Shown: piece after piece, positions 3,549-22,344 of the stretch | Layout of the letters: every line of letters begins with the position of its first letter | Numbering within the stretch: the stretch's first letter is position 1 | DNA from: Bacteroidales bacterium | GTDB lineage: Bacteria > Bacteroidota > Bacteroidia > Bacteroidales > B39-G9 | NCBI GenBank assembly: GCA_023133485.1 | Contig: JAGLWK010000006.1 | Span: 12,218-76,217, forward strand | Direction of reading: 5' to 3' | DNA: 64,000 bases | Program-made: the position numbers and the translations under genes | Notes under the pieces: model-generated | Told to the model about the DNA's origin: nothing | The model's input: the letters and a program-made list of their open reading frames with translations, nothing else | The model's database searches: none

Positions 3549-3765
3549 ATACATATCTATATAATTATTTTTTTTATTTGCTTTTGCAGTATAAAATTTC
3601 TTAACTTACCTAATATTAAATTATTTTGTTGTGTTAATAACAAGATAACGTATTGTAACAAAAAGCTAAGGCTTAGCCTGTACATTACATTATATTTTCT
3701 ATCATACAGTTATTAACATCTTGAAAAACAATAAGTACATTATTCACATTTTAAAAATCACAAAA

Positions 3766-4254
3766 ATGAAAAAAATTTCCTTCATAGTTTTTTTATTACT
3801 ATTTGCTAGTAAGTTAATTTATAGCCAAAGTAATTCTCCTGAAGTTATTTCTACAACAGGAAATTATTTTGAAAACGAAAATGCTTCATTAAGTTTTACA
3901 ATTGGTGAACCAATTATAGAAACCCTATCAGGAAGTGATTTAATTATAACCCAGGGCTTTCAGCAAAGCAAATATGAAATTACTCCGGTAATTGATATTT
4001 TGGGTGATGATATTTTTGTTAAGGTATATCCGAATCCAACATCACAATTTATTATTGTTGATATTGGACAATATACTGCTGAAAAATATTCTTTGGATAT
4101 TATCAATATCAAAGGCGAAAGACTTTTTAACACACGGATTGTCAATGAAAAAACTATTTTAAATTTAGATAAGTATTCTTTATCAGAATTAATATTAAGA
4201 ATTTTTAATGATAAAAATAAAATGATAAAGAGTTTTAAAATAATCAAAATCTAA
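3766..4254 (+). CDS. small secreted protein with T9SS (Por) C-terminal sorting domain
   Basis: The ATG at 3766 gives MKKISFIVFLLLFASKLIYSQ, a signal peptide; the listed TTG at 3721 is less likely. The C-terminal ~80 aa (VKVYPNPTSQFIIVD...YSLDIINIKGERLF...IKSFKIIKI) fits the T9SS CTD pattern. It is a near-identical paralog of 14421..14909. Confidence 0.75.
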   Translation: MKKISFIVFLLLFASKLIYSQSNSPEVISTTGNYFENENASLSFTIGEPIIETLSGSDLIITQGFQQSKYEITPVIDILGDDIFVKVYPNPTSQFIIVDIGQYTAEKYSLDIINIKGERLFNTRIVNEKTILNLDKYSLSELILRIFNDKNKMIKSFKIIKI

Positions 4255-4280
4255 TTAGAGCTTGTCTATAAAGTTGATAA

Positions 4281-4363
4281 AAACCCTCGGGGTTTAATAA
4301 AATTATAAAAATATAAATTGTAAAATATTTGTTTTCAATTAATTAGTAAAACCCCGAGGGTTT
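4281..4363. repeat. pair of mutually reverse-complementary 15-nt hairpin sequences flanking a 53-bp AT-rich spacer
   Basis: AAACCCTCGGGGTTT (4281-4295) and AAACCCCGAGGGTTT (4349-4363) each form a 6-bp stem with a 3-nt loop. The two are exact reverse complements including the loop. The same arrangement recurs at 14936-15018. Confidence 0.6.
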
Positions 4364-4376
4364 GATTATAAAGTCC

Positions 4377-4410
4377 GAAAATTCAATTTACTAAACTAAA
4401 ATTATAAATC
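4377..4410 (+). promoter_or_regulatory. conserved leader immediately 5' of all four giant genes
   Basis: AAAATTC(A/T)ATTT(A/C/T)CTAAACTAAAATTATA(A/T)ATC directly precedes the ATG at 4411, 9230, 15066 and 18823. Confidence 0.4.
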
Positions 4411-7400
4411 ATGAAAAAATTATTATTCTTTTTATTTGTTGCTTTGTTTGCAAATATTTATTTATTTGCTCAAACTCCCCAATCTTTTAATTATCAGACA
4501 ATTATCAGAAACAGTTCAGGAGAGATCATAGCAAATCAAAATGTGAGCATGCAGATAAGTATCTTGCTTGGTAGTGTTGATGCAAGTGCTGTTTATACCG
4601 AAACACATCAAGACACAACAAATCAATTTGGTCTGATAAACCTTAAAATAGGAGAAGGGACTACAACAGATGACTTTTCGGCAATTGATTGGGCTAATAA
4701 TTATGCTTTCATAAAAATTGAATTGGATATTAATGGTGGAAGCGATTATCAGGAAATGGGAGTATCACAATTACTTTCAGTACCTTATGCATTATATTCA
4801 AAAAATACCGAAAATGTTAATGATGCAGATGCTGACCCTGAAAACGAAATTCAGGACTTACAAATAAATGGTAATATTTTAACAATAACTCTAAATGGTA
4901 TAGCCACCGAAATTGATTTAAGCCAATATGACCAAAGTGGTATGAATATTAATGATGCAGATGCTGATACAACAAACGAAATTCAAAATTTGGATATTAC
5001 AGGGAATACCTTGTCAATTACACAGGGAAACTCAATAATAATTCCAACAACCGAAAATGTTTGGAGTTCTGACGGTAGTAATATCTTTTATAATCAGGGA
5101 AATGTCGGAATTGGTTCCCTAACACCATCAGGTAGATTAGAAGTAAAAGGAGATGTTACAGGAAGTCCTGATGATATATTATTTGGAGTAATAAATAATA
5201 ATGGTGATACTGTTCTTGCTGTTTATCAAGGAGGAGTGAGAATATATGTTGATACTACTACATCAAAAGCCACAGGTAGTAAAGGAGGTTTTGCAGTTGG
5301 TGGATTTAATGCAGGAAAATCCAATTCAATGGAATATCTTATAGTTACTCCGGACAGTGTTAGAATATATATTGATGATGATACATTAAAAGCTACCGGT
5401 AGTAAAGGAGGATTTGCAGTTGGTGGATTTAATGCAGGAAAAGGAACAATAACAAATGAATTATTAAGAATAACAAAAGATAGTACCCGAATATATGTTA
5501 GTAATGAAACAAAAGCTACCGGCAGCAAAGGAGGTTTTGCAGTTGGTGGATTTAATGCAGGAAAATCAGGAATTACAAATTTTTTACAACTTACACCCGA
5601 TAATTATTTTATTGGAAATCAAAGTGGATTAAATTTAACAAGTGGAATTTATAACTCAACCTTGGGTTACCAAAGTGGTCGTTTTATTAATGAAGGACAA
5701 AGTAATGCATTTATAGGTTATCAAAGTGGTTATAATACAACCATTGGGAGTGGCAATCTTTTTCTTGGATATCAAACAGGTTTTAGTAACGAAGATGGAA
5801 ACTATAATTCATTTCTGGGATATCTCGCAGGCTACTCAAATACAATAGGAACTTTTAATACATTCTTGGGGAGTTTTTCAGGATTCAATAATATTGATGG
5901 ATACAGCAATACTTTTGTCGGTGACTCAACCGGATATAATAATATTAATGGTTATTATAACACCTTTTTAGGAACAGGTTGTGGAAATCATAATATATCC
6001 GGAAATAAAAATGTTTTTATTGGTAATCAATCGGGTTATTTAAATACTTCGGGTATAAGAAATATATTTATTGGTAATCAATCAGGATGGTCAAATACTA
6101 CAGGTGTTCGTAATATTTTTATCGGAAATGTTGCCGGAGCATATCAGGAAACAGGTAGCCAAAATGTTTTTATTGGTAATGCCAGCGGATATTATAGTAC
6201 GGATACATGGGGAAATGTTAACATTGGTTATTATAGCGGATTTACTACTACAACAGGTTCTGCAAATACTTTTGTAGGAGCACTTACAGGATATTCGAAC
6301 ACAACTGGTTTTTCAAATACTTTTATTGGCATTGAAGCAGGATATTCAATGGACACAAGTTGCTGTAATACATTTTTAGGTGATCATGCTGGTTATTTTG
6401 TAACAAGTGGAGAAAGTAATGTTTTTATAGGTGCTAATGCCGGTTATAATGAATCTCAATCAGATATAGCAAGTAGTTCAAATGTATTTATTGGTAATTA
6501 TTCAGGTTTTAATAGCGCCAGTGGTGGAAATAATGTCTTTATTGGAAATGAAGCAGCTCGTAATAATATTGAATCCTGGGATAATGTAATTATTGGAAAT
6601 CAAAGTGGTTTTAGTAATACAACCGGATGGTCAAATGTAATGCTTGGATATGAAGCCGGCAGAAGCAACACAATTGGTAATGCTAATGTTTTTATTGGAA
6701 CCCGTGCAGCTTATAGCAATATTGAAGGATTTAATAATATTATGATGGGAAATAGTGCAGGTTATTTATTCACCATAGGTAATGAAAATATTTTTATAGG
6801 AAATAGCAGCGGATATAACAGCAATGATACATGGGGAAATAATTTTATCGGTTTTGAAAGTGGTATCAGCAATGAATCAGGGAATGCCAATACTTTTGTT
6901 GGAACGAAAACCGGTTATTCAAATATTTCAGGTGGTGTAAATACATTTATTGGATATGAAGCAGGATATTCAAATGTTACAGGATCTGTTAATACATTTC
7001 TTGGCTATAAAGCAGGTCATTCAGTTGATTCAAGTAATAATAATGTGATGATAGGAAGAAGTGTTGGATATTGGGCTAAACAAAGTGAGTCGAATGTTAT
7101 TATGGGAGTTTATGCAGGATTTAATGATTCAGGTAGTGATTTATATAGTGGTTCAAATGTAATAATTGGGCATGAGGCTGCTTATAAAAGTATTGGTGGA
7201 TATTCAAATGTAATTATTGGTGACCTTGCTGGCTATTATAATGAAGAATCATTCAATAATGTTTTTTTGGGTTCTGAAAGTGGATATAGCAATACTACCG
7301 GAAATAGCAATGTTTTTGTAGGAAACAGAAGCGGATTAAGCAATACAACTGCAGGTGACAATGTTTTTATAGGTAACTACAGTGGAAATTTAAACACAAC

Positions 7401-8616
7401 CGGAAGTGAAAATGTTTTTATTGGCTGGATTACCGGGCAATCAAACACAACTGCTAATGGAAACGTCTTTGTTGGTTCTGCATGTGGTGAAAGTAATACA
7501 ACAGGTGATAAAAACACATTTATTGGAATACATGCAGGTCAAAATAATACCGAATCATTTGAAAACACAATAATAGGTGCATGGACAGCTGATCATGATT
7601 CACTTGGAAGTAGAAATACTTTATATGGCTCGCAAGTATGCAGAGACCTTAGAGGAGGATGGGGGAATACTATTTTTGGATACAATGCTGGAAATATTTT
7701 AATTGAAGGTAATAGGAATGTTTTTATTGGCTATCAGGCAGGAGCAAATGAAACAAATTCAAATAGACTTTATATTTCAAATTGGGCAGCAGATTCTATT
7801 CAAGCATTAATATATGGAGAATTTGATAATGATATTTTAATGTTTAACGGGAATGTTGGCATAGGAAAATATCCAAATTATGCATTAGATATAAATGGTG
7901 ATTTAAGTATTAGTGGTTCGATAATTTCAAATGGGCCCCTGGAAGTTGATGGAATTAAATTCTTAAATAGTTTTGGCCCTGATTCAAATTATATGGCTGA
8001 AGGTAACTATATGGCTTTTGGTCATTCTGGGTCTTCGGAAGATTTTATTGGATATAAAAATAACACCTTTTATTTTTTAGATTCACCAGGAGGAGGTGAT
8101 ATACATGATCCTAATTTAGTTTTTGGTGGAAATGTAGCAATAGGAAATATTGATTATACCCAAAAATTAGACGTAGATGGAAATGCTCGTTTCAGACAAG
8201 TTGGTTCTGATGCATTTGCATTTGATCTCAGTATTACAAGTGACGGAACACTTACCACTCAAACTTCGGATAAACGATTAAAAACCAATATACAACCTTT
8301 AAATGAAGGATTGAGCAAAGTTTTAAAACTAAATGGGTATACATTTAACTGGAAGTCTGAAAATGATTCTAAAACAGATGCAGGTTTAATTGCTCAGGAG
8401 GTACTTGAGATTTTTCCAGAAGCAGTTTTCATAAATCCCTACGATGGATACTACGGAATAAACTATTCAAGATTCCCAGCCCTATTTATTGAGGCTTTTA
8501 AGGAACTGAATATAAATATTGAAAATCAACAAAAAATTATTAAGGACCAAAAAAGCAAAATTACAGAACTAGAAAACCGTTTAACCGAAATTGAAAAATT
8601 ATTGACTAAAGAATAG
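4411..8616 (+). CDS. giant secreted beta-solenoid repeat protein, tail-fibre-like, C-terminal peptidase-S74-type intramolecular chaperone domain (type A)
   Basis: 1401 aa with signal peptide MKKLLFFLFVALFANIYLFAQ. It contains three VRIY(V/I)D..(S/L)KATGSKGGFAVGGFNAGK units and dozens of 17-residue N.F(I/L)G...G..NT.G.. repeats, then a neck LYISN...ALIYGEFDND. The C-terminus SDKRLKTNIQPL...GYTFNWK...GLIAQEV..IFPEAV plus coiled coil matches the S74 autoprocessing chaperone pattern. Confidence 0.8.
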   Translation: MKKLLFFLFVALFANIYLFAQTPQSFNYQTIIRNSSGEIIANQNVSMQISILLGSVDASAVYTETHQDTTNQFGLINLKIGEGTTTDDFSAIDWANNYAFIKIELDINGGSDYQEMGVSQLLSVPYALYSKNTENVNDADADPENEIQDLQINGNILTITLNGIATEIDLSQYDQSGMNINDADADTTNEIQNLDITGNTLSITQGNSIIIPTTENVWSSDGSNIFYNQGNVGIGSLTPSGRLEVKGDVTGSPDDILFGVINNNGDTVLAVYQGGVRIYVDTTTSKATGSKGGFAVGGFNAGKSNSMEYLIVTPDSVRIYIDDDTLKATGSKGGFAVGGFNAGKGTITNELLRITKDSTRIYVSNETKATGSKGGFAVGGFNAGKSGITNFLQLTPDNYFIGNQSGLNLTSGIYNSTLGYQSGRFINEGQSNAFIGYQSGYNTTIGSGNLFLGYQTGFSNEDGNYNSFLGYLAGYSNTIGTFNTFLGSFSGFNNIDGYSNTFVGDSTGYNNINGYYNTFLGTGCGNHNISGNKNVFIGNQSGYLNTSGIRNIFIGNQSGWSNTTGVRNIFIGNVAGAYQETGSQNVFIGNASGYYSTDTWGNVNIGYYSGFTTTTGSANTFVGALTGYSNTTGFSNTFIGIEAGYSMDTSCCNTFLGDHAGYFVTSGESNVFIGANAGYNESQSDIASSSNVFIGNYSGFNSASGGNNVFIGNEAARNNIESWDNVIIGNQSGFSNTTGWSNVMLGYEAGRSNTIGNANVFIGTRAAYSNIEGFNNIMMGNSAGYLFTIGNENIFIGNSSGYNSNDTWGNNFIGFESGISNESGNANTFVGTKTGYSNISGGVNTFIGYEAGYSNVTGSVNTFLGYKAGHSVDSSNNNVMIGRSVGYWAKQSESNVIMGVYAGFNDSGSDLYSGSNVIIGHEAAYKSIGGYSNVIIGDLAGYYNEESFNNVFLGSESGYSNTTGNSNVFVGNRSGLSNTTAGDNVFIGNYSGNLNTTGSENVFIGWITGQSNTTANGNVFVGSACGESNTTGDKNTFIGIHAGQNNTESFENTIIGAWTADHDSLGSRNTLYGSQVCRDLRGGWGNTIFGYNAGNILIEGNRNVFIGYQAGANETNSNRLYISNWAADSIQALIYGEFDNDILMFNGNVGIGKYPNYALDINGDLSISGSIISNGPLEVDGIKFLNSFGPDSNYMAEGNYMAFGHSGSSEDFIGYKNNTFYFLDSPGGGDIHDPNLVFGGNVAIGNIDYTQKLDVDGNARFRQVGSDAFAFDLSITSDGTLTTQTSDKRLKTNIQPLNEGLSKVLKLNGYTFNWKSENDSKTDAGLIAQEVLEIFPEAVFINPYDGYYGINYSRFPALFIEAFKELNINIENQQKIIKDQKSKITELENRLTEIEKLLTKE

Positions 8617-9157
8617 ATACAGTAATATAAATCAAAATTACTCTGCCGGGTTTAATAATGTTTCTGATTTAGGTAATATTTTTATAGGAAAATATGCTGG
8701 TTTAAATGAATTAGAATCATACAAATTATATATAGAAAATTTTGATACTAATAGTGCTAATGCCTTAATTTTTGGTGAGTTTGATAATGATAGCATTCGT
8801 TTAAATGTTTCTGAAACCATTTTAAAATTACATCCGGTAAAATTCAAATATTCTGATGAATGGAAAAAACGAAATCCAACAATCAAAGATAAATATTATT
8901 ATAATTTCATTGCTCAGGAATTTAAAGAAGTATTTCCAAATTCAGTAAAAGGGAGTGGAAAATATCTTAAAGATGATAAAGAGGAAATTTTACAATTAGA
9001 TTCTTATAATGCTCAAATTGTTGCAATTAAAGCCATTCAGGAACTAATTAAAGAAAATAAAGAATTAAAAGCTAAAATAAACCAGATAAATGAATTATCT
9101 GAACAGATTAATGAATTAAAACAACTAATTGATGAAAAATTTGCCGAAGGTCATTAA
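8606..9157 (+). pseudogene. start-less orphan C-terminal cassette of a giant-fibre gene (type B S74-like end)
   Basis: The frame is open 8606..9157 with no ATG/GTG/TTG start at its 5' end. It translates to ...GNIFIGKYAGLNELESYKLYIENFDTNSANALIFGEFDNDSIRLNVSETILKLHPVKFKYSDEWKKRNPTIKDKYYYNFIAQEFKEVFPNSVKGSGKYLKDDKEEILQLDSYNAQIVAIKAIQELIKENKELKAKINQINELSEQINELKQLIDEKFAEGH*. This is nearly identical to the end of gene 9230..14050, but the region between the neck and ASETILKL is missing. Confidence 0.7.
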
Positions 9158-9229
9158 ATAATAATCTAATGAATACTATATTCAAAAAATATTAAAAAAA
9201 TTCTATTTACTAAACTAAAATTATATATC

Positions 9230-12200
9230 ATGAAAAAATTATTATTTATTGTTATTTCTTTATTAGTAAATATCTGTTTATTTGCTCAGGCTCCCCAATC
9301 TTTTAATTATCAGACAATTATTAGAAACAGTTCAGGAGAGATCATAGCAAATCAAAATGTGAGCATGCAGATAAGCATCTTGCTTGGTAGTGCTGATGCA
9401 AGTGCTGTTTATACTGAAACACATCTGGACACAACAAATCAATTTGGTTTGATTAACCTTAAAATAGGAGAAGGAACTACAACAAATGACTTTTCTGCAA
9501 TTGATTGGGCTAATACCCTTACTTTCATAAAAATTGAATTAGATATAAATGGAGGAAGCAATTATCAGGAAATGGGAGTATCGCAATTACTTTCAGTACC
9601 TTATGCATTATATTCAAAAAATACTGAAAATATTGATGATGCAGATGCTGATCCTGAAAACGAAATTCAAAATTTGGATATTACAGGGAATACCTTGTCA
9701 ATTACACAGGGAAACTCAATAATAATTCCAACAAACGAAAATGTATGGAGTTCTGACGGAAGTAATATCTTTTATAATCAGGGAAACGTCGGAATTGGTT
9801 CCTTAACACCATCAGGTAGATTAGAAGTAAAAGGAGATGCTACAGGAAGTACTGATGATATATTATTTGGAGTAATAAATAATAATGGTGATACTGTTTT
9901 GGCTGTTTATCAGGGAGGAGTGAGAATATATGTTGATACTATTACGTCAAAAGCAACCGGTAGTAAAGGAGGTTTTGCAGTTGGTGGATTTAATGCAGGA
10001 AAATCCAATTCAATTGAATATCTTAGAGTTACTCCGGACAGTGTTAGGATATATGTAGATGATAATATATCAAAAGCAACCAGTAGTAAAGGAGGTTTTG
10101 CAGTTGGTGGATTTAATGCAGGAAAAGGAACAATAACAAATGAATTATTAAGAATAACAAAAGATAGTGCCCGAATATATGTTAGTAATGAAACGAAAGC
10201 TACCGGCAGCAAAGGAGGTTTTGCAGTTGGTGGATTTAATGCAGGAAAATCAGGAGTTACAAATTTTTTACAACTTACAGCCGATAATTATTTTATTGGA
10301 AATGAAAGTGGAGTAAGCATAACAAGTGGAATTTATAATTCAACCTTAGGTTACCAAAGTGGTCGTTTTATTAATGAAGGACAAAGTAATGCATTTATAG
10401 GTTATCAAAGTGGTTATAATACAACCATTGGGAGTGGTAATCTTTTTCTTGGATATCAAACAGGGTTTAGTAACGAGGATGGAAACTATAATTCATTTCT
10501 GGGATATCTCGCTGGTTACTCAAATACAATAGGAACTTTTAATACATTCTTGGGGAGTTTTTCAGGATTCAATAATATTGATGGATACAATAATACTTTT
10601 GTCGGTGACTCAACCGGATATAATAATATTAATGGTTATTATAACACCTTTTTAGGAACAGGTTGTGGTAATAAAAACATTTCAGGTATTATGAATGTAT
10701 TTATTGGTAATCGTTCGGGATATCAAAATATAGATGGAAGTAGAAATGTATTTATTGGAAATTATGCCGGTAATGAAAACTTAAGCGGATATAAAAATGT
10801 ATTTATTGGACATGGAGCTGGAGCTTATCAGGAATCCGGAAGTCAAAACGTTTTTATTGGAAATTTAGCGGGTTTATTAAGTACTGAAACCTGGGGTAAT
10901 ATTAATATAGGTTTCCATAGTGGCTATAATACTACAACAGGCTCTTCAAATACTTTTGTAGGAGCACTTACAGGATATTCGAACACAACTGGTTTTTCAA
11001 ATACTTTTATTGGCATTGAAGCAGGATATTCAATGGACACAAGTTGCTGTAATACATTTTTAGGTGATCATGCTGGTTATTTTGTAATAAGTGGAGAAAG
11101 CAATGTTTTTATAGGTGCTAATGCCGGTTATAATGAATCTCAATCAGATATAGTAAGTAGTTCAAATATATTTATTGGTAATTATTCAGGTTTTAATAGC
11201 GCCAGTGGTGGAAATAATGTCTTTATTGGAAATGAAGCGGCTCGTGCTAATGAAGAATCATGGGACAATGTTATTATTGGAAATCAAAGTGGTTTTAGTA
11301 ATACAACCGGATGGTCAAATATAATGCTTGGATATGAAGCCGGAAGAAACAACACAATTGGAAATTCAAATGTTTTTATTGGAACCCATGCAGCTTATAG
11401 CAATATTGACGGATATAACAATATTATGATGGGTAATAATGCCGGCTATTTATTTACTACAGGGAATGAAAATATTTTCATTGGTAATAATAGTGGTAAC
11501 AATAGCAATGCTTGTTGGGGTAATATTTTTATGGGATTTGAAAGCGGTATAAATAATACTACGGGAAGCTCCAATACATTTATTGGTACAAAAACAGGTT
11601 ATTCAAGTATTGATGGATGGGTAAATACTTTCATTGGACATAAAGCAGGTTATTCAGTGGATTCAAGTAGTAATAATGTAATGATTGGTACCAAGACTGG
11701 TTATTGGGCAGAGAATAGTGATAGAAATGTGATTGTTGGAACATTTGCAGGTTATCATAATTCAATAAGTGATTCTTTAAGCTCATCCAACGTAATAATT
11801 GGTTATGAAGCTGCTTATAATAGCATTAGCGGAGAAGCAAATATTTTTATAGGACAAAGAGCTGGATATTCAAATGAAGACACCTGGAACAATATATTTA
11901 TTGGAAACGAAAGTGGCTACAGCAATACCACAGGGATAGAAAATGTATATCTTGGAAGCCTTTCAGGTTATTATGCTAAAAACAGCTCGTCAAGTGTATT
12001 TATAGGATCCTCAACAGGTTATAATTTCAATCAATCTGATAGTGCTAGTAGTTCACATGTTTTTATTGGAAATGGAGCAGGATATAATAGTGTTGGAGGA
12101 GAATTAAACGTATTTATCGGATACAATGCAGGATATTCAAATGAGCAATCGTTTAATAATGTTTTTCTTGGCTGTGAAAGTGGTTTCAATAATGCTACCG

Positions 12201-14050
12201 GAAATTCAAATGTTTTTTTAGGAACGCGCTCTGGTTTTGGAAATATTGATGGATATAACAATATCATGATGGGAAGTGACGCAGGCTATAATTCTGCAAC
12301 AGGTAATGAGAATATATTTATTGGTAACAAAAGTGGTTATAATAGTAACGATTGCTGGGGCAATGTATTTATGGGTTTTGAAAGTGGTATAAATAATACA
12401 ACAGGAAGCTCCAATACATTTATTGGCACTAAAGCAGGTTATTCAAACGTAGATGGTTGGGTAAACACTTTCATTGGTCATAAAGCAGGATATACAACTG
12501 ATTCAAGCAATTATAATGTAATGATAGGTAGAAGTGCAGGATATTATATTAAAAAATGTGATAAAAATGTAATCATTGGAGTAAATGCCGGTTTCCATGA
12601 ATTGCAAACTGATGTTTTTAGTGAATCAAATGTAATTATAGGTCATGAAGCTGGTTATAAGAGTACAGGAGGAGCAACAAATGTATTTATAGGTCATCAG
12701 GCTGGATATTTTAATGAACAAACTTGGAGTAATGTATTTATTGGTAATGAAAGTGGTTATAGTAACACCACTGGTAGTGATAATGTTTTTATGGGATATC
12801 AAAGTGGATTTGCCAATACAACGGGAAGAGAGAATGTTTTTATCGGTTGGCTTGCAGGTTCATCAAATACAACTTCACTTGGAAATGTCTTTGTTGGTGC
12901 AACTGCGGGAGAATCAAATACAACCGGTCATAGTAATACATTTATTGGTTTACATGCTGGAACAAAAAATGTTACTGGAAGTGATAATACAATAATTGGT
13001 GCATGGACTGCAGATGGTGATTCTGTTGGGACAGGTAATACTATCCTTGGTAGTATGGCAGCAAGAGATTTAAGAGGATATGAGAATACTATTTTCGGAT
13101 TTAATGCAGGTAATGATTTAATTGAAGGTAATAGAAATGTTTTTATTGGCTATCAGGCAGGATATCATGAAATAGGTTCAAATAAACTTTATATTTCAAA
13201 TTGGACAGCAGATTCTATTCAGGCATTAATATATGGAGAATTTGATAATGATATTTTAATGTTTAACGGGAATGTCGGCATAGGAAAATATCCTGATAAA
13301 CCTCTTGATATTGCCAGAAATGGTGGTATACAAATAAGCCTTACTGATTCTGCTTCTTCAACTAACGAGATATATTTTGTTGATAATGGACAAATAAGAA
13401 GTTGTGATAATAATCACCGCATTATTTTCTTTAGAGACCAGGATAAAATGGAATTCAGAGAATATGGCGATATAATTTTTTCATCCGGTTCATTAGATGG
13501 TTTTAGGACTAATAACATGGTAATCAATAGTGTTGGCGACCTGAGTATAAATGGTGATGCATTTAAACCTATAGCAGGTGGTTGGGAATCAACTTCTGAT
13601 AAAAGAATTAAAACCGATATTCAAGATATTGAAAATGCTTCTGAAACCATTTTAAAATTACATCCGGTAAAATTTAAATATTCTGATGAATGGAAAAAAC
13701 TAAATCCAACAATCAAAGATAAATATTATTATAATTTCATTGCTCAGGAATTTAAAGAGGTATTTCCAAACTCTGTAAAAGGCAGTGGAAAATATCTTAA
13801 AGATGATAAAGAAGAAATTTTACAATTAGATTCTTATAATGCTCAAATTGTCGCAATTAAAGCTATTCAGGAACTTATTAAAGAAAATAAAAAGCAAAAA
13901 GAACTAATTAATAATTTGCAACAGGCAAATTCAGAAAAGTATAATGAAATTAATGAATTAAAAGCTAAAATAAACCATATAGATGAATTATCAGAACAGA
14001 TTAATGAATTAAAACAATTAATTGATGATAAATTTGCCGAAGGTCATTAA
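9230..14050 (+). CDS. giant secreted beta-solenoid repeat protein, tail-fibre-like, C-terminal S74-type domain (type B)
   Basis: 1606 aa. The N-terminal ~650 aa are near-identical to gene 4411..8616, except for a missing ~47-aa DADA..EIDLS unit. It has about 55 17-residue repeats and a C-terminus SDKRIKTDIQDIENASETILKLHPVKFKYSDEW...FIAQEFKEVFPNSV plus coiled coil ending LIDDKFAEGH. Confidence 0.8.
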   Translation: MKKLLFIVISLLVNICLFAQAPQSFNYQTIIRNSSGEIIANQNVSMQISILLGSADASAVYTETHLDTTNQFGLINLKIGEGTTTNDFSAIDWANTLTFIKIELDINGGSNYQEMGVSQLLSVPYALYSKNTENIDDADADPENEIQNLDITGNTLSITQGNSIIIPTNENVWSSDGSNIFYNQGNVGIGSLTPSGRLEVKGDATGSTDDILFGVINNNGDTVLAVYQGGVRIYVDTITSKATGSKGGFAVGGFNAGKSNSIEYLRVTPDSVRIYVDDNISKATSSKGGFAVGGFNAGKGTITNELLRITKDSARIYVSNETKATGSKGGFAVGGFNAGKSGVTNFLQLTADNYFIGNESGVSITSGIYNSTLGYQSGRFINEGQSNAFIGYQSGYNTTIGSGNLFLGYQTGFSNEDGNYNSFLGYLAGYSNTIGTFNTFLGSFSGFNNIDGYNNTFVGDSTGYNNINGYYNTFLGTGCGNKNISGIMNVFIGNRSGYQNIDGSRNVFIGNYAGNENLSGYKNVFIGHGAGAYQESGSQNVFIGNLAGLLSTETWGNINIGFHSGYNTTTGSSNTFVGALTGYSNTTGFSNTFIGIEAGYSMDTSCCNTFLGDHAGYFVISGESNVFIGANAGYNESQSDIVSSSNIFIGNYSGFNSASGGNNVFIGNEAARANEESWDNVIIGNQSGFSNTTGWSNIMLGYEAGRNNTIGNSNVFIGTHAAYSNIDGYNNIMMGNNAGYLFTTGNENIFIGNNSGNNSNACWGNIFMGFESGINNTTGSSNTFIGTKTGYSSIDGWVNTFIGHKAGYSVDSSSNNVMIGTKTGYWAENSDRNVIVGTFAGYHNSISDSLSSSNVIIGYEAAYNSISGEANIFIGQRAGYSNEDTWNNIFIGNESGYSNTTGIENVYLGSLSGYYAKNSSSSVFIGSSTGYNFNQSDSASSSHVFIGNGAGYNSVGGELNVFIGYNAGYSNEQSFNNVFLGCESGFNNATGNSNVFLGTRSGFGNIDGYNNIMMGSDAGYNSATGNENIFIGNKSGYNSNDCWGNVFMGFESGINNTTGSSNTFIGTKAGYSNVDGWVNTFIGHKAGYTTDSSNYNVMIGRSAGYYIKKCDKNVIIGVNAGFHELQTDVFSESNVIIGHEAGYKSTGGATNVFIGHQAGYFNEQTWSNVFIGNESGYSNTTGSDNVFMGYQSGFANTTGRENVFIGWLAGSSNTTSLGNVFVGATAGESNTTGHSNTFIGLHAGTKNVTGSDNTIIGAWTADGDSVGTGNTILGSMAARDLRGYENTIFGFNAGNDLIEGNRNVFIGYQAGYHEIGSNKLYISNWTADSIQALIYGEFDNDILMFNGNVGIGKYPDKPLDIARNGGIQISLTDSASSTNEIYFVDNGQIRSCDNNHRIIFFRDQDKMEFREYGDIIFSSGSLDGFRTNNMVINSVGDLSINGDAFKPIAGGWESTSDKRIKTDIQDIENASETILKLHPVKFKYSDEWKKLNPTIKDKYYYNFIAQEFKEVFPNSVKGSGKYLKDDKEEILQLDSYNAQIVAIKAIQELIKENKKQKELINNLQQANSEKYNEINELKAKINHIDELSEQINELKQLIDDKFAEGH

Positions 14051-14420
14051 TATTTAATTATCAATTAAAATAAAATACTCATACATACTGGTTATGTGAA
14101 GGTTATGCCTTATGAAATGAAAGATTTGACAAAATGACAGTTTGAATTTTTAGGGCATAATCTTTTACAAAATTAATTAATTATGTACCTATCATAGTTA
14201 AAATTAAAAATAGTAAAGAAAATATTTTAGTTCCATCCTTTAATATTACCATTGAACCAAATATACGCTATTATCACAAATACATTTTATAAAAAAACCT
14301 TATTCCTTTATTTTTATTTTTTATTATTTAGCGATATTTAATACCTTGTATTTTTAAATTTCATAATTACAATTGGTATAATCCGATAAATACATTATTC
14401 ACATTTTAAAAATCATAAAA

Positions 14421-14909
14421 ATGAAAAAAATTTCCTTATTAGTTTTTTTATTACTACTTGTTAGTAAGCTGATTTATAGCCAAAGTAACTCTCCTGAAGT
14501 TATTTCTACAACAGGAGATTATTTTGAAAATGAAAATGGTTCATTAAGTTTTACAATTGGTGAACCAATTATAGAAACCTTATCAGGAAGTGATTTAATT
14601 ATAACCCAGGGCTTTCAGCAAAGCAAATATGAAATTACTCCGGTAATTGATATTTTGGGTGATGATATTTTTGTTAAGGTCTATCCTAATCCAACATCAC
14701 AGTTTATTATTATTGATATTGGACAAAATAATGCTGAAAAATATTCTTTGGATATTATCAATATCAAAGGCGAAAGACTTTTTAACACACGGATTGGCAA
14801 TGAAAAAACTATTTTAAATTTAGATAAGTATTCTTTATCAGAATTAATATTAAGAATTTTTAATGATAAAAATAAAATGATAAAGAGCTTTAAAATAATC
14901 AAAATCTAA
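14421..14909 (+). CDS. small secreted protein with T9SS C-terminal sorting domain (paralog of 3766..4254)
   Basis: 162 aa. It differs from the 3766 copy at only a few residues and has the same downstream hairpin pair and giant-gene leader. Confidence 0.75.
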   Translation: MKKISLLVFLLLLVSKLIYSQSNSPEVISTTGDYFENENGSLSFTIGEPIIETLSGSDLIITQGFQQSKYEITPVIDILGDDIFVKVYPNPTSQFIIIDIGQNNAEKYSLDIINIKGERLFNTRIGNEKTILNLDKYSLSELILRIFNDKNKMIKSFKIIKI

Positions 14910-14935
14910 TTAGTGTTTGTCTATAAAGTTGATAA

Positions 14936-15018
14936 AAACCCTCGGGGTTTAATAAAATTATAAAAATATAAATTGTAAAATATTTGTTTTCAATTAATTA
15001 GTAAAACTCCGAGGGTTT
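14936..15018. repeat. second copy of the reverse-complementary hairpin pair
   Basis: AAACCCTCGGGGTTT (14936-14950) and AAACTCCGAGGGTTT (15004-15018). The single C>T change keeps pairing as a G-U wobble. Confidence 0.55.
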
Positions 15019-15065
15019 GATTATAAAGTCCGAAAATTCTATTTCCTAAACTAAAATTATATATC

Positions 15066-18000
15066 ATGAAAAAATTATTATTTATTATTATTTCGTTATT
15101 AGTAAACATCTGTTTATTTGCTCAAACTCCCCAATCTTTTAATTATCAGACAATTATTAGAAACAGTTCAGGAGAGATCATAGCAAATCAAAATGTGAGC
15201 ATACAGATAAGTATCTTATTTGGTAGTATTGATGCAAGTGCTGTTTATACCGAAACACATCTGGATACAACAAACCAATTTGGTCTGATAAACCTTAAAA
15301 TAGGAGAAGGGACCACAACATATGACTTTTCTGCAATTGATTGGTCTAATACCCCTGCTTTCATAAAAATTGAATTAGATGTGAATGGTGGAAGCGATTA
15401 TCAGGAAATGGGAGTATCACAATTACTTTCAGTGCCTTATGCATTATATTCAAAAAATACCGAAAATATTGATGATGCAGATGCTGACCCTGAAAACGAA
15501 ATTCAGGACTTACAAATAAATGGTAATATATTAACAATAACTCTAAATGGCACAGCCACCGAAATTGATTTAAGCCAATATGACCAAAGTGGTATGAATA
15601 TTAATGATGCAGATGCTAACCCTGAAAACGAAATTCAGGACTTACAAATAGATGGTAATATTTTAACAATAACCCTAAATGGTACAGCTACAGAAATTGA
15701 TTTAAGTTCTTATATTGACAATACTGATAATCAAGAACTTAGCATAATTAATGATACCCTTAGTATTGCAGGTGGAACAAATATTATTGATTTAAGCATA
15801 TACGACCAAAGCGGTATGAATATTAATGATGCAGATGCTGATACAACAAATGAAATTCAAAATTTGGATATTACAGGAAATACTTTGTCAATTTCACAGG
15901 GAAACTCAATAATAATTCCAACAACCCCAAGTATTTGGAGTTCTGACGGTAGTAATATCTTTTATAATCAGGGAAATGTCGGAATTGGTTCCCTAACACC
16001 ATCAGGTAGATTAGAGGTAAAAGGAGATGCTACCGGAAGTCCTGACGATATTTTATTTGGAGTAATAAATAATAATGGTGATACTGTTTTGGCTGTTTAT
16101 CAGGGAGGAGTAAGAATATATGTTGATACTGCTACATCAAAAGCTACAGGTAGTAAAGGCGGATTTGCAGTTGGTGGATTTAATGCAGGGAAATCCAATT
16201 CAATTGAATATTTTAGAGTTACTCCTGATAGTGTGAGAATATATGTTGATACTGCTACGTCAAAAGCAACTGGTAGTAAAGGCGGATTTGCAGTTGGTGG
16301 ATTTAATGCAGGCAAAACAAATGGACTAGAGTTGTTAAGAGTAACAGACGATAGTGTTCGTATTTATGTAAAAAATACTACGTCAAAAGCCACAGGTAGT
16401 AAAGGTGGATTTGCAGTTGGTGGATTTAATGCAGGGAAATCAGGAGTTACAAATTTTTTAGATCTTACACCAAATAATTATTTCATTGGCCACGAAGCAG
16501 GATTTTCAAATACAACAGGATTGTATAACTCATTTATTGGTTATAATTCCGGTTATTCAAATACCATAGGTGAACGCAATATATTTATGGGTTATTATTC
16601 GGGATATTCAAACCTAGATGGATATAACAATCTATTTATTGGAGATTCTTCTGGTTATTCTAATTCAAGTGGTATTCGAAATATTTTCCTCGGTAACCGA
16701 GCAGGAAAAGCAAATACTACAGGATACCAAAATATTGCTATTGGAATGTATGCTGGTTATGAAAATACAATAGGGAATCGTAATGTTTTCATTGGAACCG
16801 CTGCTGGTTATGATAATACAGAGGGAATAACAAATGTGTTTATAGGTAATTTTGCAGGTGGATATAATACCTTAGGTAGCCAAAATGTTTTTATTGGAAG
16901 AACGGCAGGATACCTTAATACAACAGGTTCTAGTAATGTTTATGTTGGTATGGAGGCTGGTTTCAATAGCGATACAGCCCAACAAAATGTATGTATTGGC
17001 ATCCATAGTGGCTACAGTAATACAGGAGGATGGAGCAATGTTTTTGTTGGAGATAATACAGGATTTTCCAATACTACAGGTCACGATAATGTTTTTATAG
17101 GAAGTGGTACAGGTTATTATAACACCATTGGTTGTAATAATACGCTTCTTGGAATTCAAGCAGGTTATTCAAATACAGAAGGAACCAGTAATGTTTTCCT
17201 GGGATCTTTTTCTGGATGGAATAATACTACAGGTAATTATAATATTTACATTGGAGACCATGCTGGTCACGATAGCGATACAGCAGGTTCCAATGTTAGT
17301 ATAGGTTTTTACGCCGGATGTAAAAATGCGGGAGGAGGTAATAATGTTTTTATCGGAGATAATACAGCACAAGAGAACACAACTGGTAGCTCAAATGTTT
17401 TTATAGGAAAAGCAACAGGTGCTGAAAATACTACTGCTAATTATAATACATTCATCGGGAATGAAAGCGGACATAGTAATATAGAAGGGGAACAAAATAC
17501 ATTTTTTGGTGCTTCATCCGGCGTTTGGCACGCGGTTGGTGATAGTAATGTATTCATTGGAGTTGCAAGTGGAGCAAATCATATTAACGGAAGCAGCAAT
17601 ACTATGATAGGACCTTATGCAGGTTCCAATTCAAACGGAAGCGGAAATGTGTTTTTAGGTAATCATGCAGGTAATGACGAACAGGGATCAAATAAATTGT
17701 ATATCGAAAATACAGGACATGATAGTGCAAATGCATTGATCTATGGTGAGTTTGATAATGATATTCTTCGCTTTAATGCAGATGTAACTATAAAAGGAAA
17801 TCTAACTATTAAAGGCTCTGATAATTATAATTTGTTCCTTGGTGATTCTGCCGGTTATTTCAATTCTTCAGGTCAACAAAATACTTTTATTGGTACAGAA
17901 GCAGGAAATTTAAATAGCACAGGTTCCAAAAATGTATTCTTAGGAGCCTGGGCAGGAGAGTCTAATACTTTTGGTAGCAATAATACTTTCATGGGAAGAG

Positions 18001-18749
18001 CAGCAGGTTGTTCTAATACTGAGGGTAATGGTAATATATTTCTGGGAGACTGTGCAGGTGTTTATAATTCTACAGGAAGTGGAAATGTCTTCATGGGAAA
18101 TGGGACCGGATATGATAACACAGTTGGTGATTCAAGTGTATTTATTGGATACAATGCAGGTCGTTACGAAACGGCATCATACCGGTTGTATATTGAAAAT
18201 AGCCAGTCTGATAGCGAAAATGCCCTGATTTATGGTGAATTTGATAATGACAGTCTTTGGTTAAATGCTGATGTAAAAATCAAAAATTCATTAAGCGTTG
18301 GTGGAAATGTTGGTATTGGCACTATCATCCCCGATAAACTATTACATGTTGCCGGTGATGCAAGAATAGAAGGAGACATTTATTGGGGTACAGCAGAAGA
18401 TATATATATTAAACCAGACTTTGTTTTTAATATTGATTATCAAGATAATTATCAGATTCTTGATATTGAAAAATTTATAAAGAAAAATAATCATTTGCCT
18501 TGGTTAACTTCAGCCAAAGATGAAAACGATGGAATAAACATGACACGAATGCAGTTTGAAACACTCGAAGCAGTTGAAAATCTCCAACTACAAGTAATTG
18601 AGTTAAAAAAGGAAAATGAAAGGCAAAAAGAAATAAATAATAATTTACAACAGGCAAATTCCGGAAAGTATAATGAAATTAATGAATTAAAACAACTAAT
18701 TAATGAATTAAAACAACTAATTGATGATAAATTTTCTGAAAGTCATTAA
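15066..18749 (+). CDS. giant secreted beta-solenoid repeat protein, tail-fibre-like, HLPW-type C-terminal module (type C), two neck motifs
   Basis: 1227 aa with the same signal peptide and N-domain, and extra DADA(D/N)PENEIQDLQI.GNILTITLNGTATEIDLS units. It has two LYIEN...ALIYGEFDND necks (~17685-17820 and ~18178-18290). The C-terminus is DFVFNIDYQDNYQILDIEKFIKKNNHLPWLTSAKDENDGINMTRMQFETLEAVENLQLQVIELKKEN, with no SDKR.K S74 motif. Confidence 0.8.
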   Translation: MKKLLFIIISLLVNICLFAQTPQSFNYQTIIRNSSGEIIANQNVSIQISILFGSIDASAVYTETHLDTTNQFGLINLKIGEGTTTYDFSAIDWSNTPAFIKIELDVNGGSDYQEMGVSQLLSVPYALYSKNTENIDDADADPENEIQDLQINGNILTITLNGTATEIDLSQYDQSGMNINDADANPENEIQDLQIDGNILTITLNGTATEIDLSSYIDNTDNQELSIINDTLSIAGGTNIIDLSIYDQSGMNINDADADTTNEIQNLDITGNTLSISQGNSIIIPTTPSIWSSDGSNIFYNQGNVGIGSLTPSGRLEVKGDATGSPDDILFGVINNNGDTVLAVYQGGVRIYVDTATSKATGSKGGFAVGGFNAGKSNSIEYFRVTPDSVRIYVDTATSKATGSKGGFAVGGFNAGKTNGLELLRVTDDSVRIYVKNTTSKATGSKGGFAVGGFNAGKSGVTNFLDLTPNNYFIGHEAGFSNTTGLYNSFIGYNSGYSNTIGERNIFMGYYSGYSNLDGYNNLFIGDSSGYSNSSGIRNIFLGNRAGKANTTGYQNIAIGMYAGYENTIGNRNVFIGTAAGYDNTEGITNVFIGNFAGGYNTLGSQNVFIGRTAGYLNTTGSSNVYVGMEAGFNSDTAQQNVCIGIHSGYSNTGGWSNVFVGDNTGFSNTTGHDNVFIGSGTGYYNTIGCNNTLLGIQAGYSNTEGTSNVFLGSFSGWNNTTGNYNIYIGDHAGHDSDTAGSNVSIGFYAGCKNAGGGNNVFIGDNTAQENTTGSSNVFIGKATGAENTTANYNTFIGNESGHSNIEGEQNTFFGASSGVWHAVGDSNVFIGVASGANHINGSSNTMIGPYAGSNSNGSGNVFLGNHAGNDEQGSNKLYIENTGHDSANALIYGEFDNDILRFNADVTIKGNLTIKGSDNYNLFLGDSAGYFNSSGQQNTFIGTEAGNLNSTGSKNVFLGAWAGESNTFGSNNTFMGRAAGCSNTEGNGNIFLGDCAGVYNSTGSGNVFMGNGTGYDNTVGDSSVFIGYNAGRYETASYRLYIENSQSDSENALIYGEFDNDSLWLNADVKIKNSLSVGGNVGIGTIIPDKLLHVAGDARIEGDIYWGTAEDIYIKPDFVFNIDYQDNYQILDIEKFIKKNNHLPWLTSAKDENDGINMTRMQFETLEAVENLQLQVIELKKENERQKEINNNLQQANSGKYNEINELKQLINELKQLIDDKFSESH

Positions 18750-18822
18750 ATAATAATCTAATGAATACTATAATTCAAAAAATATTACAAAAATTCAATT
18801 TTCTAAACTAAAATTATAAATC

Positions 18823-21800: not shown

Positions 21801-22164
21801 TAATGCAAGAATAGAAGGAGACATTTATTGGGGTACAGCAGAAGATATATATATTAAACCAGACTTTGTTTTTAATATTGATTATCAAGATAATTATCAG
21901 ATTCTTGATATTGAAAAATTTATAAAGAAAAATAATCATTTGCCTTGGGTAACTTCAGCCAAAGATGAAAACGATGGAATAAACATGACACGAATGCAGT
22001 TTGAAACACTCGAAGCAGTTGAAAATCTCCAACTACAAGTAATTGAGTTAAAAAAGGAAAATGAAAGGCAAAAAGAACTGATTAATAATTTACAACAGGC
22101 AAATTCCGAAAAGTATAATGAATTAAGACAACTAATTGATGATAAATTTTTCGAAGGTCATTAA
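18823..22164 (+). CDS. giant secreted beta-solenoid repeat protein, tail-fibre-like, HLPW-type C-terminal module (type C)
   Basis: 1113 aa. The N-terminal ~470 aa and C-terminal ~170 aa are near-identical to gene 15066..18749, while the central repeat block is divergent (more Cys/Tyr-containing repeats such as GYQCGYNN). Confidence 0.8.
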   Translation: MKKLLFIVISLLVNICLFAQTPQSFNYQTIIRNSSGEIIVNQNVSMQISILFGSIDASAVYTETHQDTTNQFGLINLKIGEGTTTDDFSAIDWANNPAFIKIELDINGGSNYQEMGVSQLLSVPYALYSKNTENINDADADPENEIQDLQIDGNILSITLNGTATEIDLSQYDQSGMNINDADADPENEIQDLQIDGNILTISLNGTATEIDLSSYIDNTDNQELNLSNDTLSISGGTNTIDLSIYDQSGININDADADTTNEIQNLDITGNTLSITQGNSIIIPTTENVWSSDGSNIFYNQGNVGIGSLTPSGRLEVKGDVTGSPDDILFGVINNNGDTVLAVYQGGVRIYVDTATSKATGSKGGFAVGGFNAGKSNSVEYLRVTPDSVRIYVDTASSKATGSKGGFAVGGLNAGKTNGLELLRVTDDSVRIYVKNATSKATGSKGGFAVGGFNAGKSDAVNFLDLTPKNYLIGHRAGQSITDGDYNTFFGYESGISNTSGYNNVFLGYNSGYMNTTGAQNIFIGKNSGYDNISGLGNVCLGTFTGMNLENANYNVFIGDGAGKTDSTGSNNIFIGSSSGADNLIGTENIFLGTNSGIHNIDGDNNIFIGNNSGNFNEQGEYNTFIGYRSGYKNTTGNRNLFLGYQCGHENIIGDKNLFIGYECGYENDSASYNQFIGYQCGYNNRFAKYNTFIGYMCGYYNTGILSKPDSGSYNVFIGKQCGYSNTIGNKNVFLGYESGYSNTDGVNNVFIGSKTGRSNTSGFNNVFLGNNAGYMNTEGDRNVFLGNTAGFSNTSAYHNIFIGEAAGYGNKDGRYNIFIGSTAGYYTDSANSNIFIGTDAGESNINGAGNVFIGQGAGVRHKEGDNNVFQGIFAGYEDTSGVYNVYIGNRAGMDNITGQRNVLLGCYAGGNSPTGNKNVFIGNFAGYNETNSERLYIENSSTDSTQALIYGEFDNDSLWFNADVKIKNSLSVGGNVGIGTVTPDKLLHVAGNARIEGDIYWGTAEDIYIKPDFVFNIDYQDNYQILDIEKFIKKNNHLPWVTSAKDENDGINMTRMQFETLEAVENLQLQVIELKKENERQKELINNLQQANSEKYNELRQLIDDKFFEGH

Positions 22165-22222: not shown

Positions 22223-22237
22223 GTGATCCAGCTGGGT
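22223..22237. repeat. attL core (duplicate of tRNA-Lys 3' end)
   Basis: Identical to 41714-41728. The following bases CTTGAACCTGAAT resemble tRNA TTCGAACCCAGGA with mismatches. Confidence 0.75.
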
Positions 22238-22344
22238 CTTGAACCTGAATTGTTGCAACGTTCGTGTTTGTTGTGTTTGTAAAATATTTAAAACTCAATC
22301 GTTAAACAATTGGTAAACATTTGTTGGTTTATTGTTTTTTTTTT

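Follow-up and report, generated by a model that had tools for sequence, protein, structure and literature searches.

Four genes of a little-studied family of Bacteroidota surface fibers stand in tandem on the chromosome of an uncultured Bacteroidales bacterium. Between the first two lies an open frame that resembles the end of such a gene and has no start codon, which raises the question of whether this cassette is a functional unit or a piece left over from an earlier gene. On the basis of the current analysis of the window (that is, the whole stretch of 64,000 nt), it is quite probable that the cassette is a pseudogene fragment of recent origin, namely the 3' remnant, now without function, of a paralogous secreted fiber gene, stranded by recombination within the tandem array. 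The features around it are as follows:

Giant gene 1: 4411-8616, + strand, 1401 aa, stop TAG at 8614-8616.
Cassette: 8606-9157, + strand, open over 184 codons in the +1 frame with respect to gene 1, bounded upstream by TGA (8603-8605) and at its end by TAA (9155-9157).
Junction J1: 8617-8640, + strand, putative illegitimate junction of the gene 1 stop with the remnant's penultimate repeat.
Repeats and neck: 8641-8807, + strand, about one and a half terminal repeats followed by the neck ('LYIEN...ALIFGEFDNDS').
Junction J2: 8803-8808, + strand, microhomology AAATG(T/C) of 5-6 nt, an in-frame join according to register alignment.
Type-B Peptidase_S74, distal two-thirds: 8803-9061, + strand, 95.8% identical to gene 2 positions 13633-13891.
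C-terminal coiled-coil tail and stop: 9062-9157, + strand, 94.8% identical to gene 2 positions 13955-14050.
Spacer between cassette and gene 2: 9158-9229, 72 nt, including the conserved 33-nt leader that precedes each of the four giant genes.
Giant gene 2: 9230-14050, + strand, 1606 aa, with 'LYISNW' neck, type-B tip, complete S74 and coiled coil.

First, the open frame could be confirmed as the initial annotation had described it: it spans 552 nt, opens 8-10 nt ahead of the gene 1 stop (ten bases had been claimed) in the +1 frame, and has no ATG, GTG or TTG at its 5' end. None of these codons, nor CTG, occurs anywhere along the cassette frame, where only ATA, ATT and ATC were found. The gene 1 and cassette frames are both open over 8 nt only (8606-8613). 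At the composition of the window (29% GC), the probability that such a frame is open by chance is ∼4e-8, and the other two + frames contain 19 and 36 stops across the cassette. No signal peptide, N-terminal domain or conserved leader could be identified ahead of the cassette; its S74 part is preceded by about one and a half repeats and the neck, and by nothing more. In the NCBI annotation, 8627-9157 is a 176-aa CDS with an ATA start (MCK4661323.1, 'tail fiber domain-containing protein'), and the cassette is better described as a gene remnant than as this deposited protein. A longer ENA gene call (P0107, 188 aa) was rejected as a genetic-code artefact in which TGA 8603-8605 is read as Trp. An antisense ORF at 8638-8886 showed no family match.

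Gene 1 consists of a signal peptide, a conserved N-terminal domain, GxxNxFxG repeats, an 'LYISNW' neck, a type-A tip and a complete Peptidase_S74 domain (PF13884, 67.8 bits, profile positions 1-57/58). Its stop is native, because a 65% identical homolog (P0032) terminates at the equivalent position. In a search for the donor lineage of the type-A end, the best hit was 65% identical, which neither supports nor opposes horizontal import. The composition profile showed no foreign signature, and no exact-protein records were found for gene 1 and P0001.

The cassette itself appeared to be a mosaic. Behind the gene 1 stop, the repeat consensus is recognizable only from ∼8636 (YSAGFNN...), and no homology to the J1 segment 8617-8640 could be found elsewhere in the window. 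The neck that follows is of the 'LYIEN' type of genes 3 and 4, yet the repeat/neck part shares only 71% nucleotide identity with the internal neck of gene 3 (17643-17778), 74% with its terminal neck (18176-18267) and 72% with the neck of gene 4. Thus, none of the extant necks is a close match (≤74%), and that of gene 1 is the least similar, its matches being limited to stretches of 31 nt (84%) and 11 nt (91%), with ∼42% amino acid identity over 74 residues. J2 marks the switch from neck-type homology to S74 homology of the gene 2 type. The order proposed earlier, namely a terminal repeat, a neck and then a jump to the S74 region, was reproduced, the jump being J2, and the near-identity to the type-B end of gene 2 is borne out by the two alignments listed above. 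The missing segment is also real; in gene 2, it takes up 124 residues from the neck to 'SETILKL' rather than the ∼110 estimated before, and it includes SDKRIK (gene 2 aa 1456). In addition, gene 2 positions 13892-13954 (63 nt, that is, 21 aa or three heptads) are missing from the cassette before the coiled-coil tail. No intact gene is closer to the 3' part of the cassette than gene 2. At 95.5% identity, the part that they share exceeds the similarity of any other 3' region in the four genes, suggesting a duplication or conversion event that was separate and recent.

In its 3' part, the cassette shows homology to the PF13884 chaperone/autocleavage domain of endosialidases, phage tail fibers and MyRF, and, as in those systems, the usual trimerizing coiled coil follows. 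Its score exceeds the family threshold (31.1 bits versus a gathering score of 22; E 2.9e-7), and the match spans only profile positions 15-58 of 58. The Ser-Lys dyad (S-x4-K, 'SDxRxK'), located at the start of the domain, is absent, in contrast with gene 1 (SDKRLK) and gene 2, both of which carry complete S74 copies. This motif was kept as SDxRIK in all ∼50 related type-B-like ends, with one variant, SDRLIK (L025). It has been reported that the dyad is indispensable for self-cleavage in the Peptidase_S74 family (PMC8326128); autocleavage should therefore be impossible for the cassette, considering the missing dyad and the partial profile match. Unlike the norm of the S74 family, the cassette is not at the C-terminus of a complete fiber or spike protein, and both the upstream stalk and the tip are absent.

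To place the cassette in its array, the following features are also needed:

Small Por_Secre_tail ORF with hairpin and leader: 3731-4420, + strand, upstream of gene 1.
Gene 1 neck island: 7767-7874, + strand, 108 nt, 97% identical to the gene 2 neck (13186-13293).
Collinear block: 9086-9300, + strand, matching 18678-18893 (gene 3 end, 73-nt spacer and gene 4 start) at 91.7%.
Giant gene 3: 15066-18749, + strand, with an internal neck (17643-17778), more repeats and a second neck.

The segment 3731-4420 is duplicated at 14386-15075 upstream of gene 3 (96.1% identity, ungapped), which defines two super-units: small gene, gene 1, cassette and gene 2; and small gene, gene 3 and gene 4. Given this duplicated Por_Secre_tail gene and leader, the cassette occupies by position the expected end of the first giant gene of its unit. 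The collinear block begins in the last 72 nt of the cassette and continues through the spacer into the start of gene 2; accordingly, the claimed parallel between the cassette end with its spacer and the end of gene 3 with the gene 3-4 spacer could be verified. Gene 3 ends in a non-S74 type-C module, of which the last 72 nt and the downstream spacer take part in this parallel, and its internal neck looks like an in-frame fusion of two neighboring genes. The 97% neck island of genes 1 and 2 is flanked by ∼70% identity and stops abruptly at 7875, the point where types A and B diverge. To judge by this pattern, it marks a recombination tract at the module boundary, and exchange at the neck does occur. 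Together with the collinearity, the island supports the initial reading of the cassette as evidence of modular recombination in the array. A tblastn search with all three C-terminal module types identified no other cassette-like remnants in the window.

The next issue is how recently the cassette was part of a gene. Its comparison with the gene 2 end revealed 11 synonymous and 5 non-synonymous differences (dS 0.195, dN/dS 0.09), where ∼25 non-synonymous changes would be expected if it had drifted since the split (P∼2e-6). Such a low ratio suggests that the cassette was part of a working gene until recently, and this recent membership in a selected gene would explain an intact frame without present function. 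It should be noted that low dN/dS would also be expected were the frame still under selection, as would in-frame indels (J2 and the 63 nt corresponding to three heptads), and that the NCBI pipeline calls the cassette a CDS. We infer, nevertheless, a lack of function, and the cassette is probably inactive.

In the proposed history, the J1 join would have brought the 3' part of an older gene (the final one and a half repeats with neck and C-terminal module) directly behind the gene 1 stop, and this older gene would thereby have lost promoter, signal peptide and >90% of the coding sequence. Through the microhomology-mediated J2 join (AAATG, 8803-8808), the neck would have come to adjoin the middle of a type-B S74 intramolecular-chaperone domain, with loss of the tip domain and of the Ser-Lys autocleavage motif. 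The frame would remain open as a legacy of the recently selected gene and not through current translation. We infer the parent gene and the order of events; the latter, as well as the choice between a displaced end and a deleted neighbor, rests on parsimony, since the closest relatives were only 61-72% identical when the cassette was used as query against genome and metagenome contigs, and no outgroup genome above about 60-70% protein identity was found. We slightly favor the former end of the gene in the gene 1 slot, because the arrangement is collinear with the second gene unit. The old end would then have been pushed aside through homology-facilitated illegitimate recombination by a block, either incoming or paralogous, comprising ISNW neck, type-A tip, S74 and stop. 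The same product would result if a third gene had stood between genes 1 and 2 and been largely deleted, which appears equally simple, because the internal neck of gene 3 looks like the fusion of neighbors. With regard to the earlier proposal that gene 1 swapped its C-terminus and stranded its old end, the stranded start-less C-terminal fragment stands, whereas it need not be the former end of gene 1 itself.

The cassette resembles the ordinary gene remnants of tandem paralog arrays, which arise by unequal crossing-over or microhomology-mediated deletion. Short-microhomology junctions, a mosaic of paralogs and the loss of the 5' end and start codon are shared with them, and the array around the cassette bears conversion tracts and, in gene 3, a fusion scar. 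Nothing essential differs; the unusual point is the intact frame, which is explained by recency in view of the dN/dS. The cassette can be regarded as an ordinary product of recombination between tandem copies of a gene, and it reveals no new mechanism. It matters mainly for annotation and evolutionary reading: considered with the neck conversion tract and the gene 3 scar, it documents that the conserved neck (ALIYGEFDND) is the site at which C-terminal modules are swapped.

A second kind of system, the orphan cdiA-CT/rhs-CT fragments of CDI, Rhs and T6SS effector genes, is similar in several respects. Like them, the cassette is start-less, follows directly after a full-length paralog (it begins 0-25 nt from the gene 1 stop) and keeps a piece of the conserved region preceding the variable end. 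In orphan CT fragments, part of the conserved region is kept as well, and their origin has been explained by insertion of a new end via an upstream homologous crossover and a downstream illegitimate join (PMC6336857). On the other hand, the cassette belongs to an unrelated family, a Bacteroidota secreted fiber with an S74 chaperone, which has no toxin and no immunity gene, and just a 72-nt spacer separates it from gene 2. Furthermore, its variable module is itself deleted, its homology tract with the upstream gene is weak and not near-identical, and it is single and not recurrent across related loci.

This likeness bears on whether the cassette might be a maintained silent donor, that is, whether recombination at the neck could re-attach its module to an expressed fiber gene, as the initial annotation had suggested. 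In favor of such a role, the neck and repeat are retained ahead of the module as in orphan CT fragments (PMC6336857), the frame is open with a low dN/dS, genes 1 and 2 show clear signs of neck recombination, and the array's most similar 3' segment, the S74-B part shared with gene 2, is compatible with recent transfer. However, the mature fiber would be altered by the tip domain alone, and this domain is missing, as are the Ser-Lys dyad and the first third of S74, so that a recombinant would not be expected to self-cleave. With a neck ≤74% identical to any expressed neck (∼40 nt at ∼85% to that of gene 1), the cassette should also be ill suited to homologous recombination. Only one copy was found in the window, and a comparable start-less truncated fragment was found in none of the ∼50 type-B-like ends among the 86 loci retrieved by the cassette query (L001-L006 and L012-L091). 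A silent donor is therefore unlikely.

Elsewhere, where the contig permits judgement, the type-B-like ends close ORFs of hundreds of residues; the exceptions were L007-L009, with an in-frame TGA, and one short gene (L027). Three short S74 proteins considered as candidate orphan cassettes were rejected: P0026 (L007-L009) is a gene split by the in-frame TGA, P0027 (L010) results from a scaffold gap (a run of N), and P0028 sits on a short contig.

Antigenic variation from silent cassettes (Neisseria pilS, Borrelia vls, Mycoplasma MgPar) involves many cassettes and a variable exposed region. The present cassette is likewise a promoter-less partial copy of a surface protein near expressed, recombining relatives; in contrast with those systems, it is one cassette, it carries only chaperone and coiled coil, the chaperone being cleaved off in complete S74 domains, and no dedicated recombination signal was seen at it. 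The broader idea that Bacteroidota S74 fibers diversify their ends by neck-anchored module exchange, with displaced ends as a reservoir and the cassette as a still-usable donor, appears improbable. If true, it would be a non-toxin analog of the CDI/Rhs orphan-CT logic, and the 97% neck island of genes 1 and 2 would be a footprint of such exchange.

Translation of the cassette, either as a free 176-aa protein from ATA 8627 or as an extension of gene 1 by a +1 shift at ACU-AAA-G (8605-8611), is very unlikely. The NCBI entry and the low dN/dS speak for such a product, and a Lys-tRNA slipping from AAA to AAG at 8608-8611 would shift translation into the cassette frame within the permissive 8-nt window. 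Nevertheless, a canonical start, signal peptide and conserved leader are all absent, the codon after the putative slip site is GAA and not a stop, and no pausing or stimulatory element was identified in a scan that covered only sigma-70 promoters and terminators. The ENA call does not help, because it depends on TGA as Trp. Moreover, a fusion would put the repeat, neck and truncated S74 behind a complete self-cleaving S74, and no homolog has a domain after the S74 tail.

Finally, an assembly or sequencing artefact, in which near-identical tandem paralogs were mis-joined or a 1-nt error near 8608 split a single ORF, deserves very little credit: the source is a metagenome-assembled genome, the array holds blocks at 91-96% identity and a 1-nt deletion in AAA 8608-8610 would join the two frames, but J1 has no repeat on either side, J2 shares only 5-6 nt and the 63-nt indel is not flanked by long repeats (assembler k-mer sizes far exceed all of these), gene 1 stops at its native position, and a second assembly agrees. 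This independent assembly, ENA contig L092, whose sample may be the same or related so that the population is not necessarily independent, covers 5930-9712 with 6 SNPs and no indel (99.84% identity), reproduces all junctions and shows 0 SNPs within 8600-9230. An assembly error is thus an unlikely cause of the arrangement, and the check at 8600-8620 left the observation of the cassette unrefuted.

Several sequence elements were also searched for. Scans for sigma-70 promoters, terminators and the Bacteroidetes -7 motif gave counts at or below shuffle expectation, with no terminator-like site between gene 1 and gene 2; no inverted repeats pointing to an invertible or shufflon-like element were found around the cassette, and no Rfam RNA families matched in the region. 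One weak promoter-like match lies in the spacer (9192-9221), with nothing diagnostic between gene 1 and gene 2. The sole recombinase noticed in the window belongs to an integrated element at tRNA-Lys.

The cassette is an open frame of 184 codons (8606-9157, + strand) between giant genes 1 and 2, limited by TGA at 8603-8605 and TAA at 9155-9157 and lying in the +1 frame with respect to gene 1, which stops with TAG at 8614-8616. No in-frame ATG, GTG, TTG or CTG was found across the entire frame. The other two frames of the same stretch contain 19 and 36 stops, and the probability that such a frame stays open by chance at the composition of the window (28.7% GC) is ~4e-8. These frame, stop and start-codon checks bear out the initial annotation, which had described a start-less 552-nt frame opening before the gene 1 stop. 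The surrounding array contains four giant genes, arranged head to tail within the window, and a hairpin that occurs twice:

4411-8616, + strand: giant gene 1, ending in a complete Peptidase_S74 domain (type A)
9230-14050, + strand: giant gene 2, ending in a complete Peptidase_S74 domain (type B)
15066-18749, + strand: giant gene 3, ending in a third module (type C), no Pfam match
18823-22164, + strand: giant gene 4, ending in the third module (type C), no Pfam match
4281-4363 and 14936-15018: hairpin in a duplicated block, ~15-nt GC-rich stems within 31-nt arms, AAACCCTCGGGGTTT...AAACCCCGAGGGTTT

Every giant gene has an N-terminal signal peptide and a conserved region of ~400 aa, followed by a long GxxNxFxGxxAG repeat run, the neck (LYI.N...ALIYGEFDND) and a C-terminal module. 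The type-A and type-B ends are divergent (39% amino-acid identity). A 690-nt ungapped duplicate (96.1%) is shared by the upstream flanks of gene 1 (3731-4420) and gene 3 (14386-15075), and comprises a small Por_Secre_tail (T9SS-sorted) ORF, the hairpin, a leader and the start of the giant gene. Since this block is repeated before gene 3, the array consists of two super-units, one formed by the small ORF, gene 1, the cassette and gene 2, and the other by the small ORF, gene 3 and gene 4. A 33-nt leader (…AAAATTCTATTT[A/C]CTAAACTAAAATTATATATC-ATG; 91-98% conserved when compared over 33-43 nt) directly precedes all four giant genes (4378-4410, 9197-9229, 15033-15065 and 18790-18822) and may serve as a shared promoter-proximal or translation-initiation element. 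The type-C ends (18060-18746 and 21499-22161; …PDFVFNIDYQDNYQILDIEKFIKKNNHLPW…) share the coiled-coil tail …LKQLIDDKF.E.H with the type-B end, and may represent an uncharacterised alternative C-terminal module.

Two junctions could be located inside the cassette:

8617-8640, + strand: J1, between the gene 1 stop and the last repeat but one of a different gene
8803-8808 (AAATG), + strand: J2, in-frame join from the post-neck 'DSIRLN' into a type-B S74 domain at its middle

At J1 no repeat consensus can be recognised before ~8636; one full repeat and then a neck of the LYIEN type follow, in which one residue is conservatively changed (ALIFGEFDND). The stretch 8672-8807 shares 71-74% identity with the gene 3 and gene 4 necks. 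The resemblance to the gene 2 end noted initially was confirmed over both 3' blocks, with nucleotide identities of 95.8% (8803-9061 versus 13633-13891) and 94.8% (9062-9157 versus 13955-14050). Between them, gene 2 has 63 nt that the cassette lacks (13892-13954); they encode 21 aa, or exactly three heptads, of the terminal coiled coil. Genes 3 and 4 also differ in this segment, with gaps of 10 and 20 alignment columns, and coiled-coil length varies between paralogues. The proposed parallel with the end of gene 3 and the following spacer likewise holds: 9086-9300 aligns at 91.7% identity with 18678-18893, a stretch that runs from the gene 3 end across the spacer into gene 4. The segment absent relative to gene 2, between the neck and 'SETILKL', is real but measures 124 residues rather than the ~110 first estimated. 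The Pfam S74 match in the cassette covers only profile positions 15-58 of 58, and the SDxRxK motif, which supplies the Ser-Lys dyad, is lost; this dyad is indispensable for autocleavage in the S74 domain family (PMC8326128). Thus, the cassette carries a partial Peptidase_S74 domain devoid of the catalytic dyad. All sequence between the neck and SDxRxK, which in the mature fibre would form the distal tip, is also missing.

Over 117 comparable codons, the cassette differs from the gene 2 end by 11 synonymous and 5 non-synonymous substitutions (dS 0.195, dN 0.018, dN/dS 0.09), one of the five being the J2 junction codon itself. Neutral drift of the cassette since the split would predict ~25 non-synonymous changes (P ~2e-6), which indicates that the cassette sequence belonged to a functional gene for almost the whole of its separate history and was stranded only recently. 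Such recent stranding suffices to explain the unbroken frame, so the open frame alone is no evidence of present function. When polarity was judged against more distant homologues, at least two of the five replacements (R/L at 8870 and N/D at 9089) seemed to have arisen on the gene 2 side.

Two one-step histories fit the cassette, displacement having a slight edge over deletion. In a displacement, a block made up of the ISNW neck, the type-A tip, the S74-A domain and a stop would have replaced the 3' part of the unit's first giant gene, through an illegitimate join combined with homologous crossover within the repeats, and the old gene end would have been left downstream as the cassette. Old ends stranded in this manner are known from orphan cdi, rhs and T6SS modules (PMC6336857). 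From the end of the cassette through the spacer into the start of gene 2, the sequence is collinear with the stretch leading from the gene 3 end across its spacer into gene 4, and genes 1 and 3 have duplicated upstream flanks; by position, therefore, the cassette corresponds to the end of the gene 1 slot. In addition, a distant homologue (P0032) combines the ISNW neck with a type-A end, and identity between genes 1 and 2 drops from 85% to ~70% around 7300. A deletion that began shortly after the stop of gene 1 and ended in the final repeats of a third gene would fit as well, since no extant neck closely resembles that of the cassette and gene 3 contains an internal neck followed by a fresh repeat run:

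17643-17778 (aa ~860-905): gene 3 internal neck, with ~14 post-neck residues, new repeats and a second, terminal neck after it

This arrangement has the look of two neighbouring fibre genes fused in frame. The initial proposal that gene 1 gained a new type-A end and stranded its former one is thus favoured by positional collinearity, but only slightly over deletion.

The cassette marks the neck as the place where these Bacteroidota fibre genes recombine. An exchange of modules there is also visible independently of the cassette: over 108 nt, the gene 1 neck (7767-7874) and the gene 2 neck (13186-13293) differ at only 3 positions (97% identity), with ~70% identity on either side, and their similarity ends exactly where the type-A and type-B modules diverge. 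Such a pattern is what a recombination or conversion tract leaves at a module boundary.

Because the donor role and the translation routes each face objections, we regard the cassette as quite probably a relic. A retained silent donor, as suggested initially, is unlikely: it could supply neither tip nor cleavable chaperone and has little homology to expressed necks. Translation is still harder to credit. A free-standing protein, which would lack a signal peptide, requires either the ATA start (8627) of the 176-aa NCBI call (MCK4661323.1, 'MAG: tail fiber domain-containing protein [Bacteroidales bacterium]', 107-kb contig) or, as in the 188-aa ENA call P0107 starting at TTG 8591, TGA 8603-8605 read as Trp. 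The latter is a genetic-code artefact, presumably of a code-4 gene model on an AT-rich contig, and correction of database annotation is the practical value of this analysis. A +1 slip at AAA-G (8608-8611), within an 8-nt permissive window, is formally possible, but the codon after the slip site is not a stop, a pausing signal was not found there, and the extension would follow a chaperone domain that cleaves itself off. An assembly or sequencing artefact is equally improbable, since an ENA contig (L092; ERZ23498665, sample SAMN18200500) matches 5930-9712 at 99.84% with no gap, and no indel restoring one ORF at 8600-8620, its six SNPs (four in gene 1 repeats, two in the gene 2 signal peptide) all lie away from the junctions, sequence shared at J1 and J2 is 5-6 nt at most, far below assembler k-mers, and the gene 1 stop is native because P0032 (65% identical to gene 1) ends at the equivalent residue. 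No homologue shows a gene 1-cassette fusion of the kind that error correction would produce, and sequencing error need not be invoked. In its logic the cassette recalls the orphan CT fragments known from CDI and Rhs loci, but it lacks their complete module, immunity gene, near-identical homology tract and recurrence, and its family is unrelated to theirs; the most fitting label is that of an ordinary gene remnant within a tandem array of recombining paralogues.

A search with the cassette retrieved 86 related loci from genomes and metagenomes, and ~50 type-B-like ends among them were analysable. All of these keep SDxRxK (one variant, SDRLIK, in L025), and none shows a truncation like that of the cassette. 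Where the contig permits judging, they terminate ORFs hundreds of residues long, except for one short gene (L027) and a gene with an in-frame TGA (L007-L009). No genome closer than ~60-70% protein identity to this locus was found. Short S74 database proteins were rejected as orphan candidates, being products of the latter nonsense-split gene or of a scaffold gap (L010). In the split gene (L007 8744-10360; Bacteroidales MAGs, for example, GCA_021738625.1), the TGA lies inside the neck (…STPLI*GDFA…) and separates a 400-aa ORF from a 119-aa S74 ORF in the same arrangement in three assemblies; this gene is a nonsense pseudogene unless the stop is recoded.

Downstream of the array, 22223-41787 looks like an integrated element of ~19.5 kb:

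27220-28605: Rep_1-like protein (weak)
28628-29050: SSB
40428-41603: tyrosine integrase, adjoining tRNA-Lys
41714-41787, - strand: tRNA-Lys(ttt)

A family match was absent for most of its scanned ORFs; a transglutaminase-like protein and a Laminin_G_3 protein are also encoded. The 3' 15 nt of the tRNA-Lys (GTGATCCAGCTGGGT) are repeated exactly at 22223-22237, 59 nt past the gene 4 stop.
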